Source of the DNA: Isurus oxyrinchus
Lineage: Eukaryota
Assembly (NCBI GenBank): GCA_026770705.1
Contig: JANJGN010000071.1
Coordinates: 868,001-932,000 of the forward strand
Direction of reading: 5' to 3'
DNA length: 64,000 nucleotides
The notes below the pieces were generated by a model. That model worked only from the letters and a program-made list of their open reading frames with translations. It had not been told where the DNA came from and did not search any database. Below, one piece after another: positions 26,324-43,761 of this stretch (positions are counted from its first letter, which is position 1; each line of letters begins with the position of its first letter). Made by a program: the position numbers and the translations under genes.

Positions 26324-26363
26324 ATGATTCGGAAATCTTACTTCCTCCTGTCACTTCTCCAAG
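26324..26363 (+). CDS. Gene A leader exon (MIRKSYFLLSLLQ)
   Basis: Kozak accATG; phase-1 donor AG/GTAATA. Confidence 0.85.
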
Positions 26364-41300: not shown

Positions 41301-43761
41301 TTGCTTAGAAATTACTAAACATTCAACAGACAATGAAGCAATAGCGAAGTGAGCTCACTGTTGAAATGTAGGAAACACAGGTACTGATTTGTGCACAGCA
41401 AGATCCCGCAATCCATCGTGTGATAATGACCTGATAGTCGACTATTTTAGTGAGGTTGGTTGTTACATGTGTAGAGACTACATACCCTTTAGGGAGGTAA
41501 GCATGTCTCGATGTGGATGTGACTCCAGTCTCAGACACCAGCATGGTTAACTCTTACCTGCCCTCTGAACTGCTCTCCCAGTTTGGGACAAACCAGTGGT
41601 TCAGGAACAAGACCCCCCACCACCATCTCAAAGGGAAACTAGTGATGGACAATAAATGTCAGCATTGCCCGAGAATGAGTATTTAAACATTGAGTGAGTG
41701 TATCGCTTCTCGAGATACATCGGAGCATCATTGTAAACCTGTAGTGCAGTAATTAATGGCTGTTTTTACAGGTAGAGACTCCAGTAAATGGACAGTAGGA
41801 TTGTTCACGGCTGGGATCATGTTGAGTGTTTTCCTGGCTGGAATCTTCATCTTCATCTGTGTGAGAAAGTAAGTCTGAAGATTTAACTTGATTTTAATAT
41901 AAACATTTGCTTCAATGTTCTTTCCTGAAGTCGGTGATTGTTTCCCTTGTGTTAAGCGCCAGATGCCTCTCCGTAACTGGTCACTTTGTCCCTTATTATC
42001 CAGACAGTGTTTTTCATTGCCCGTTATCCAGATGAATAATAATCAGTTGCTGTGATCTGGAAGGTGCTGCCTGAAAGGGCGGTGGAAGCAGATTCAATAG
42101 GAACTTTCAAAAGGGGAATTGGATAAATACTTGAAGGGGGAAAATTTGAAGGGCTACGGGGGGAAGAGCAGGGATGGAGGGGTCAGGCAAAATTGGATCA
42201 CATGACACACTTCCATTATAGTGATATCACGCTGATATCCCTTATTGCAACTGGAGACAGTCCAGTCGTTGGTGTAAGGTTACAGTGGGCTCTGTGTCTG
42301 TGCTGCACTGACTCTCTGCTATATGATAACCACAGTGTGATATTGTGTTATTGCAGGAGAAAGACAGCGATGGAGGAGAGAGTTTTAGGGACCAGTGACA
42401 TTGCATTGACCCCCAGTCCACTCTCTGTGAAGCACCAGGTACAGGAGCTGTTTACACTCACTCCAAAGCTTCAATATCAGTGTGTAGACAACACGTGTCC
42501 CAAATTCCCAACCCAGTTACCCACAGATATCTACCTGTGGAGTCAGCAATGGCTCAGTAGGTAATACTGACTTTCGGTCCCTTCCCCCTCTCTCCCTCCA
42601 TCACTCGCTCTTTGTCCAGAGACCTGAACACAATAATCACAAGGCACCTGATGTCACTACTGAGGGAGTGCTGCACTGTCGGAGGGTAGGTACTGAGGCA
42701 GTGCTGCACTGTCGGAGGGTCATTACTGAGGGAGTGCTGCACTGTCGGAGGGTAGGTACTGAGGGAGTGCTGCACTGTCGGAGTGTCAGTACTGAGGCAG
42801 TGCTGCACTGTCGGAGGGTCAGTACTGAGGGAGTGCTGCACTGTCGGAGGGTCAGTACTGAGGGAGTGCTGCACTGTCGGAGGGTAGGTACTGAGGGAGT
42901 GCTGCACTGTCGGAGGGTCACTACTGAGGGAGTGCTGCACTGTCGGAGGGTAGGTACTGAGGGAGTGCTGCACTGTCAGAGTGTCAGTACTGAGGCAGTG
43001 CTGCACTGTCGGAGGGTCAGTAGTGAGGGAGTGCTGCACTGTCGGAGGGTCAGTACTGAGGGAGCGCTGCACTGTTGGAGTGTCAGTACTGAGGGAGTGC
43101 TGCACTGTGCGAGGGTCAGTACTGAGGGGGTGCTGCACTGTCAAATAGTCAATATTCAAGTGGTGCTGCCTTCTCGAAGAGGCAGTTGTGAGGGAGTGCC
43201 GCACTGTCAGAAGCCAGCACTGAGAGTACATTGTAGTGTTCAAGGTGCTGTCTTTCAGAACAGTTGTATAATGCTGACCATGTTTACCCTCTCAGGTGGT
43301 CGTCTAAGATCCCACGGCCACATTTCCAACACTATAGCAGTGACACCCTTCAACAAAAATTTCTTCATTTGTGTGAGGTTCTTTGGATGTCTTTGAAAGA
43401 AAGGGTTAAACGCTCTGAGCCACGACTGACACTAACGAGGCTGCACAATAATTTAACCCTATCAGTGCCAGTAAATGATGTGAGGATGTCTTCTGTTTCC
43501 ATTTCACTGTAGGGTAAACAGAACGTGCTGATTACTGAGCCCCGGAACACAACCAGAGACACAACTAGTGAGGGGGAGACCCCAGCTCCCCGGGGTCTCT
43601 CTGAAGGTCCAGTGGGAGGCGATGCTGGACATGGGAATCCTGACAAACCCGACGAGATTCTCTACGCCAACATCAACTTTTCAAAGCTGCCCGGCGGTGA
43701 CAGGACTGTGCACAGGAGCGAGGACACGGAATACGCACAGATCAGGTTCCAGAAAAACTGA
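26324..43761 (+). CDS. Gene A: Siglec-family inhibitory receptor, 15 coding exons, V-V-C2-(Ig)8-TM-ITIM-ITSM, ~1252 aa
   Basis: Exon lengths 40+369+369+297+8x282+97+82+249 = 3759 nt; all GT-AG with compatible phases and no internal stops. Siglec V-set cysteine pattern and F-strand Arg present. Orthology not assignable by eye. Confidence 0.9.
27550..27640. repeat. 28-bp tandem repeat (gattccttagacaatgaggatccaaaga), ~3 units; ~6 units at 56265-56430
   Basis: Directly visible. Confidence 0.85.
29932..30300 (+). CDS. Gene A V-set domain 1
   Basis: VGLSQEW...CVQIPC...GVWF...DCSL...YFFRIE...NYY; phase 1-1. Confidence 0.92.
31045..31900 (-). mobile_element. CR1-like LINE 3' fragment with a nested HE1-like tail
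   Basis: Minus-strand VNTEEDCNKLQDDI; cattctccccactctctgggtaaagaagtttctcctg. Confidence 0.7.
31966..32334 (+). CDS. Gene A V-set domain 2 (extra BC-loop Cys)
   Basis: AEPSQEW...CVQIPCHYSYPSC...DCSL...YFFRIE; phase 1-1. Confidence 0.92.
32706..33002 (+). CDS. Gene A Siglec domain-2-type C2-set exon
   Basis: DFTDKTTIFP...VSCTFNTTC...PVLTW...YTSVLTLIPSLKHHGHNLSCRV; three Cys, typical of Siglec domain 2. Confidence 0.92.
33547..33828 (+). CDS. Gene A Ig repeat exon 1
   Basis: 282 nt, phase 1-1; IICSVESFPASNLTW...DTGDYQCVAEN. Confidence 0.9.
34568..34849 (+). CDS. Gene A Ig repeat exon 2
   Basis: 282 nt, AG/GTGAGT bounded. Confidence 0.9.
35582..35863 (+). CDS. Gene A Ig repeat exon 3
   Basis: 282 nt, AG/GTGAGT bounded. 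Confidence 0.9.
36464..36745 (+). CDS. Gene A Ig repeat exon 4 (most divergent, extra Cys)
   Basis: 282 nt; INACSVNIIDG, SNQTW. Confidence 0.88.
37747..38028 (+). CDS. Gene A Ig repeat exon 5
   Basis: 282 nt, AG/GTGAGT bounded. Confidence 0.9.
38828..39109 (+). CDS. Gene A Ig repeat exon 6
   Basis: 282 nt, AG/GTGAGT bounded. Confidence 0.9.
39900..40181 (+). CDS. Gene A Ig repeat exon 7
   Basis: 282 nt, AG/GTGAGT bounded. Confidence 0.9.
40673..40954 (+). CDS. Gene A Ig repeat exon 8
   Basis: 282 nt, AG/GTGAGT bounded. Confidence 0.9.
41772..41868 (+). CDS. Gene A transmembrane exon (RRDSSKWTVGLFTAGIMLSVFLAGIFIFICVRK)
   Basis: Not in the ORF track. Acceptor ttttacAG, phase 1-2, donor GTAAGT; hydrophobic helix with no charged residue. 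Confidence 0.88.
42357..42438 (+). CDS. Gene A cytoplasmic exon 1
   Basis: Phase 2-0; RKTAMEERVLGTSDIALTPSPLSVKHQ. Confidence 0.85.
42655..43240. repeat. 33-bp minisatellite, longest array, in the last intron of gene A
   Basis: More than 15 units of cagtactgagggagtgctgcactgtcggagggt. Confidence 0.92.
43513..43761 (+). CDS. Gene A terminal cytoplasmic exon with ITIM (ILYANI) and ITSM-like (TEYAQI) motifs
   Basis: Phase-0 acceptor AG 43511-43512; open to TGA. Confidence 0.9.
   Translation, partial: GKQNVLITEPRNTTRDTTSEGETPAPRGLSEGPVGGDAGHGNPDKPDEILYANINFSKLPGGDRTVHRSEDTEYAQIRFQKN

Follow-up and report, generated by a model that had tools for sequence, protein, structure and literature searches.

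An inhibitory-type Siglec gene with a tandem-exon stalk in a large receptor cluster of the shark Isurus oxyrinchus

Nearly all knowledge of Siglecs comes from mammals, where a few CD33-related genes and two pairs of receptors have been studied. Human CD33-related Siglecs comprise about a dozen genes. Described here is a Siglec-type gene of Isurus oxyrinchus at 26324-43761 on the forward strand of the window, the 64,000-nucleotide stretch from 868,001 to 932,000 of contig JANJGN010000071.1 (GenBank assembly GCA_026770705.1). Taken alone, the gene is a modest variant; the scale of the cluster to which it belongs is the larger result.

Mammalian Siglecs bind through an Arg, recruit SHP through an immunoreceptor tyrosine-based inhibitory motif (ITIM), and couple to adaptors through a charged transmembrane (TM) segment (PMC4042635, PMC13358205). 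C36 of CD33 is paired with C169 in the domain that follows, and R119 is its essential Arg (PMC6669322). CD33-related Siglecs (Siglec-5/14, Siglec-11/16) share several features with the shark gene: a V-set head with the essential Arg and the V-to-C2 cysteine pattern, a last exon that encodes both an ITIM and a distal TEYxxI-type motif, and clustered genes. Siglec-5/14-type pairs join an inhibitory to an activating sibling whose heads are nearly identical, an arrangement predicted for the shark cluster too, and their pairing is ascribed to gene conversion (PMC4042635). The systems differ in scale: three small primates have four to five CD33-related genes (PMC4384638), whereas the shark cluster holds hundreds of loci with modular heads of 1-4 V domains and 0-10 stalk repeats. 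Shark copies thus likely far outnumber mammalian Siglecs.

Primate Siglec-12 resembles the shark gene in its tandem V-V head and inhibitory tail. It has one C2-type stalk region only, compared with nine domains after the V-V head in the shark gene. Its printed V2 loop contains no BC-loop Cys, in a row that is unscorable by pattern. CD22 has a multi-Tyr tail, and we know of no ITIM tail in sialoadhesin (Siglec-1). Both carry a long Ig stalk, which may lift the binding site clear of cis ligands (PMC10027830). The likeness is convergent only, as the shark stalk consists of recent copies of one domain-3 exon. Five-domain members of the family align with MAG (Siglec-4) along its whole ectodomain, odd fifth domain included; the gene described here differs in missing domains 4 and 5. 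Elasmobranch proteins named SIGLEC10/12/13-like, MAG-like, CD22-like, and sialoadhesin-like (P0012, P0032, P0046, P0051, P0087) belong to the same family.

No publication on a shark Siglec cluster or on HAMP-Siglec synteny was found in literature searches that were thin on subscription journals. The excerpt of PMC8455134 mentions Siglecs once, as a gnathostome family, and that of PMC13358205 makes no mention of sharks.

Gene model and head domains

The sequence confirms the gene at 26324-43761 as a real and intact Siglec gene of predicted inhibitory type. Its 15 exons, spliced by sequence, join into a single open reading frame of 1252 residues; every intron has GT-AG ends, and the Ig exons are without exception of phase 1/1. 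The order is V-V-C2, eight I-type domains, TM segment, and tail, which is the Siglec layout: a type I membrane protein with a V-set domain at the N-terminus and C2-type domains after it. Pfam matches above cut-off are V-set on both head exons, C2-set_2 on the third domain, and Ig_3/I-set on the stalk, where three of the eight exons were scanned. The 1252-residue protein with a double V-set head that the earlier note had spliced by hand therefore stands, as does its reading of an uncharged TM segment and of a proximal ITIM and distal TEYxxI motif in one terminal exon.

The signal-peptide exon contributes its coding part at 26324..26363. The V1 exon (29932..30300) encodes Arg116, Cys35, Cys40, and Cys98, with His47 in the BC loop, and the V2 exon (31966..32334) encodes Arg239, Cys158, Cys163, and Cys221, with an extra BC-loop Cys170 (codon at 32064). 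The domain-2-type C2-set exon (32706..33002) carries Cys288 in its BC loop, expected to pair with Cys158. Eight 282-nucleotide stalk exons of domain-3 type span 33547..40954, with starts at 33547, 34568, 35582, 36464, 37747, 38828, 39900, and 40673. The TM exon (41772..41868) encodes 25 residues from residue 1117, none of them charged. It is followed by the first cytoplasmic exon (42357..42438) and the terminal exon (43513..43761), which encodes ILYANI (the ITIM, Y1221) and TEYAQI (the distal motif, Y1244), an arrangement typical of CD33-related tails. All of these exons lie on the forward strand. The assignments rest on splicing, joined by Pfam for the V, C2, and stalk exons, a PDB search for V2, repeat analysis for the stalk, and RNA-like joints for the signal, TM, and cytoplasmic exons. 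The ectodomain of 11 Ig domains contains 35 sequons.

A probable 5′ non-coding exon of uncertain start lies at 25789..25890 (+), with its donor at 25891. A copy of this stretch is found about 0.5 kb upstream of most family signal exons in the annotated sample, which comprises 814 kb of contig C71 and 250 kb of contig C52 (1.064 Mb, 57 blocks). A 36-nucleotide linker exon at 41111-41146, which would lengthen the protein to 1264 residues, was rejected as a constitutive exon; 1252 residues were retained because RNA-like contigs link the stalk exon straight to the TM exon and the linker peptide occurs in none of 117 annotated relatives.

Contigs from sequencing runs were matched at 92% likeness and hence give evidence at the level of the family, not of the locus; their RNA status is a guess by classification. 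One sample of four runs contains signal-V, V-C2, C2-repeat, and repeat-repeat joints, as well as loose ends that pair a V end with a V2 start, and its signal-to-V joint is found in three of the four runs. Repeat-TM, TM-tail, and tail-tail joints come from runs in up to four studies. All eight junction types of the gene model are represented among the RNA-like contigs.

The V domains are closest to those of sialic-acid-binding Siglecs. A PDB search with V2 gave Siglec-5, -8, and -7, CD33, and MAG as best matches, and the F-strand Arg of V2 is aligned in all three alignments displayed, including Siglec-5 and -8. This Arg is present in both V domains (R116 and R239). The closest named proteins to the V domain are from lamniform sharks, with up to 98% identity. 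The cysteines of the B-E and V-to-C2 disulfide pattern are present by sequence (Cys35/40/98, 158/163/221, and 282/288/340), and the first Cys is kept in 50/50 intact V exons of the sample.

V1 and V2 differ at 15 of 369 nucleotides (96% identical), yet His47 and Cys170 remain distinct. Across the sampled loci, the BC-loop Cys (TGT) is found in 19/19 later V domains versus 0/31 intact first V domains, where the position holds His, Asp, Tyr, Lys, or Asn. Two first V domains with this Cys both contain stop codons, and one frameshifted V was unscorable. The same Cys is present in 38 of 49 later and 1 of 25 first V domains of annotated elasmobranch proteins (7 unscorable), compared with 1 of 18 later V domains of other vertebrates (6 unscorable). 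A Cys35-Cys170 disulfide between V1 and V2 is the simplest and likely reading of this position, and the extra Cys suggests a simple route to rigid stacking of V domains. An AlphaFold model of the proxy V-V-C2 protein P0010, built on an 18-sequence alignment, had a mean predicted local distance difference test score of 70 and a predicted template-modelling score of 0.48; its Foldseek matches (pIgR, CD33) were uninformative.

V exon variation is concentrated in the BC, C-C′, and F-G loops, and the tip domain of multi-V genes is the most variable V. The essential Arg is lost in 6/13 first domains of multi-V genes and in 0/37 single or inner V domains, a count in which one gene scored as single-V has a broken V2. 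The ratio of nonsynonymous to synonymous change (pN/pS) is 0.64 for V exons (confidence interval 0.49-0.88), with 0.43 for later V domains, and 0.57 for pooled stalk exons (0.38-0.93).

Stalk, relatives, and ancestry

The stalk consists of one exon repeated eight times. The copies are 91-99% identical (3-24 of 282 nucleotides differ pairwise) and are arranged as tandem units of 0.8-1.3 kb, intron included. Among the 72 intact stalk exons of the sample, the mean distance is 10.8 nucleotides within genes versus 11.5 between genes, and several repeats of the gene have their best match in the same-ranked repeat of two C52 paralogues. The stalk exon is assigned to domain 3 because a five-domain relative aligns over the entire MAG ectodomain (E 1.8e-58), with the stalk exon at the position of domain 3. 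By this alignment, the gene reads as the family scaffold minus domains 4 and 5, with domain 3 amplified. The best 60 of 85 PDB hits of a stalk repeat include MAG and Siglec-8, and neither CD22 nor sialoadhesin is among them.

Assembly stutter was considered as the origin of the eight repeats and judged unlikely, because the copies differ from one another. It is also disfavoured by the closest copy of the gene (C52:3300365-3324380, reverse strand; L001-L004), which is 99.2% identical over 11.9 kb of the 5′ part and has eight full and two partial repeats in another layout. The tail of this copy is 96.7% identical, and it may be an allele or a very young paralogue. Repeat 4 of the gene (window position 36511) is the most divergent and carries an unpaired extra Cys657, which could drive disulfide dimers; an extra Cys occurs in 4/72 intact stalk repeats.

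Annotated shark and ray relatives number 117, have 50-98% V identity, and share the TM types. They are automatic database annotations, tree labels included. A tail with an ITIM and a TEY-type motif is present in 27/117, and multi-V heads and stalks of about 10 domains recur, although some of these models are read-through fusions. None of the 117 was scored as having the V-V-C2 head, eight repeats, and ITIM/TEY tail of the gene.

Trees of domains 1-2 were built from 143 rows in quick mode and from a carefully run 26-row subset, without curated human sequences. The 26-row tree places the gene in a nine-row clade (97/96) of eight named sharks and rays and one further row. CD22-like and MAG-like rows form a separate clade (98/96), as do teleost and tetrapod CD33-like rows (95/91), and the fork between the clades is left open. 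Topology testing with the approximately unbiased test (p-AU) did not reject a grouping of the elasmobranch clade with CD33-like rows (p-AU 0.387), and its grouping with CD22-like rows was borderline (p-AU 0.0545). This domain phylogeny, a check proposed in the earlier note, separates the gene from the CD22-like and MAG-like rows.

A CD22 or Siglec-1 orthologue would be a single-copy gene whose stalk is old, internally divergent, and homologous to CD22 or Siglec-1 domains; the gene has eight near-identical exons and hundreds of paralogues. Nor does the gene look like a MAG orthologue, which would be a five-domain, single-copy gene with a highly conserved domain 1: its V domain is 36-39% identical to a sturgeon MAG-like V, it falls in a separate clade, and domains 4-5 are missing. 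A search of the assembly for a true MAG orthologue was swamped by family members and is uninformative on the presence of MAG. The earlier note had called the protein an undescribed hybrid of a CD22/sialoadhesin-like stalk and a CD33-type tail. This description has to be given up: a domain-3 exon native to the family, copied eight times, makes up the stalk, V2-C2 lies in an elasmobranch-only clade apart from CD22-like and MAG-like rows, and automated annotations of other sharks already include heads with several V domains, stalks some 10 domains long, and the same tail with two Tyr.

Divergent family members with a third TM type and a different tail are located at C34:15.13-15.19 Mb (L111-L116), on a 19.9-Mb scaffold, and are possibly the anchored end of the cluster. 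They lie 14 kb from a hepcidin exon, and C34 carries two different hepcidin genes at 15.20 and 15.23 Mb. A hepcidin-like last exon has 59 exact matches in the assembly, all on cluster contigs (C52, C71, C121, C150, C189, C385, C546, C557, C646, C724, and C838; e.g., L012:212-313). This last exon encodes an intact 8-Cys peptide in the copies that were read. This exon is co-amplified with the Siglec cassette. Since hepcidin stands beside the cluster and HAMP adjoins MAG and CD22 in the human genome, there are hints that the cluster grew at the ancestral Siglec locus. Hepcidin is the sole neighbour found; matches to the synteny markers LSR and ETF, the latter for the KLK/ETFB region of CD33-related Siglecs, are on other small contigs, and when 78 of the 243 long open reading frames near the C34 copies were scanned with Pfam, the matches were of reverse-transcriptase type or spurious.

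The cluster and its interpretation

The family is expanded far beyond what the window displays. A protein search of the assembly scored 150 of 1073 candidates, all 95-100% identical to V2. Exact matches of 23-32-mers, with 0 matches in each control, count 707 V exons, 405 signal exons, 187 uncharged (inhibitory) TM exons, and 212 Arg-TM exons. Of the TM matches, 55 + 64 = 119 are on the single contig C52 (4.17 Mb), and the five cluster contigs of recorded size total 9.5 Mb. These paralogue counts, together with broken blocks, bear out the lineage-specific birth-and-death expansion with pseudogenes that the window had suggested. As in CD33-related Siglecs, the genes are clustered, turn over fast, and have paired Arg-TM members; from the TM Arg only, we infer that the latter may be activating siblings.

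Intactness was scored on the signal-V-C2 core, with TM and tail splice sites outside the scoring. An intact core with a TM exon was found in 10/19 inhibitory-type, 9/19 Arg-type, and 2/7 third-type blocks of the sample, and 12/57 blocks are without a TM exon. Intact inhibitory-type genes have 1-3 V domains and 0-10 stalk repeats, and intact Arg-type genes have 1-4 V domains and 0-1 repeat. Nearly all intact exons are distinct (V 49/50, C2 30/31, stalk 70/72). Scaling of the sample gives roughly 200 intact genes, or roughly 100 if both haplotypes were assembled. Within C71, blocks of 6-17 kb recur at 90-99% identity. For the 3.4 kb downstream of the gene 40 candidates were scored, which gave 39 other copies at 96-98% and no copy at 99%. 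Wholesale false duplication is disfavoured by these two observations.

The gene is probably an intact inhibitory-type Siglec of sharks and rays with a tandem-exon stalk, likely an immune-damping sensor of sialic acid that belongs to a cluster of several megabases with probably 100-200 functional paired receptors. Its open frame, domain order, two binding Arg residues, tail motifs, and stalk repeats are observed, and so are the hundreds of paralogous exons, the two main signalling types, and splicing at family level. By analogy with R119 of CD33, V1 would bind sialylated glycans through Arg116. V1 would be stapled to V2 by Cys35-Cys170, a copy of the usual V-to-C2 link, and V2 to C2 by Cys158-Cys288. 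Sialoadhesin is about 33 nm long when it has 17 domains and 14 nm when it has 6, its forms with four or fewer domains fail in cell binding, and receptor length has been linked to escape from cis ligands (PMC10027830). Interpolation from sialoadhesin suggests about 20 nm for the glycosylated 11-domain ectodomain, which may be less masked by sialic acids of its own cell and whose long reach may favour ligands on other cells or sialylated microbes. Ligation would lead to phosphorylation of Y1221 and Y1244 and recruitment of SHP-1/2, and Arg-TM, short-tail siblings with near-identical heads could counter-signal through an adaptor with an immunoreceptor tyrosine-based activation motif. Unequal crossing-over and gene conversion may shuffle the type of tail as well as the numbers of V domains (1-4) and of stalk repeats (0-10).

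A broader proposal is tentative, and we lean slightly against it: that over 9 Mb of this genome hold the largest Siglec repertoire yet seen, with about 100-200 paired receptors that are expressed. It would combine heads of 1-4 V domains, stapled by disulfides and hypervariable at the tip, 0-10 reach-tuning repeats, interchangeable inhibitory and activating anchors, and dozens of co-amplified hepcidin-like genes, and would amount to innate glycan sensing on the scale of KIR/LILR in cartilaginous fish. If true, the graded natural stalk lengths would be a ready series for tests of cis versus trans binding, the hundreds of near-identical heads on two opposite anchors would inform paired-receptor turnover, and paired Siglec signalling would date back to cartilaginous fish.

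Several observations weigh against an intact, working inhibitory receptor in a large functional cluster. Roughly one in two sampled loci is broken. An LSR-family exon, probably single-copy, is found at both C452:60361 and C1620:70134, with flanks about 98% identical; alleles may therefore differ by 2% and the assembly may hold both haplotypes, which could halve the cluster counts. Among the RNA-like contigs none covers the whole gene or can be assigned to it, one run was flagged as probably DNA though it carries GT-AG joints, and a V1-to-C2 joint in one run may reflect V2 skipping or an origin from single-V paralogues. The BC-loop Cys is missing from 11/49 later V domains of other elasmobranch species, and its pattern is a single inherited event rather than many independent ones. 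The pN/pS ratio is compatible with neutrality among the gene's own eight repeats (0.60, confidence interval 0.31-1.26) and among C2 exons (0.63, 0.37-1.14). Positive selection was not seen, as no region has pN above pS (C-C′ loop: pN 0.315, pS 0.342).

These points feed the most durable alternative, in which runaway segmental duplication threw off the gene and most of the cluster as by-products, a few members work, and stalk length and copy number drift neutrally. Such a process would leave many broken loci, orphan tails, and partial exons, all of which are common here; it would copy non-coding DNA and the hepcidin exon together with the genes, and it would yield young copies like the 6-17 kb blocks, with pN/pS intervals that include 1 for the C2 exons and the gene's repeats. 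It is nonetheless unlikely, given that 11/11 Ig exons of the gene are intact, that 19/19 later V domains hold their position-specific Cys even where the rest of V1 and V2 is 96% identical, that pooled pN/pS is below 1, and that spliced contigs exist.

Adaptor-coupled paired receptors typically have a charged TM segment and a short tail. The Arg-TM, short-tail partners look like such receptors, and this likeness to LILR/PIR raises the idea that the family binds mainly proteins (pathogen adhesins or self) rather than sialic acid. The variable tip domain of multi-V genes, with its 6/13 losses of Arg, fits this idea. Retention of Arg in both V domains of the gene and in 37/37 single or inner V domains, and the sialic-acid-binding Siglecs that are its nearest structures, make it rather improbable. 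A chimera or orthologue with a CD22/sialoadhesin-derived stalk has in its favour a similar length and domain count, NCBI labels of 'CD22-like' or 'sialoadhesin-like' on some relatives, and the merely borderline rejection of a grouping with two CD22-like rows, but it is highly improbable and for the stalk already contradicted, by exons that are as close to the stalk exons of paralogues as to one another, by the PDB hits, and by the tree.

Neighbouring sequences in the window

Orphan tail exons of a paralogue are located at 18412..21597 (+), in the order terminal, first cytoplasmic, terminal, and their proximal motif is YANP, not an ITIM. Tail exons of the family encode either YANI (ITIM) or YANP (no ITIM). 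In some genes the two kinds stand in tandem, from which alternative tails could arise.

An Arg-TM-type paralogue occupies 55029..62730 (+), with its TM exon just past the window end. Its V1 is intact, V2 has a stop codon and a frameshift, and C2 is frameshifted; it is a probable pseudogene. A second Siglec lineage is represented by a broken V exon at 7824-8234 (+), which has no Arg and a stop after the F strand. By eye it resembles the first domain of Heptranchias P0033, and its nine copies in the 1.064-Mb sample all contain stops. Stretches of about 1-6000 of the window seem to recur near 46400-53500 (within the region 44600-54500), which fits a repeated cassette.

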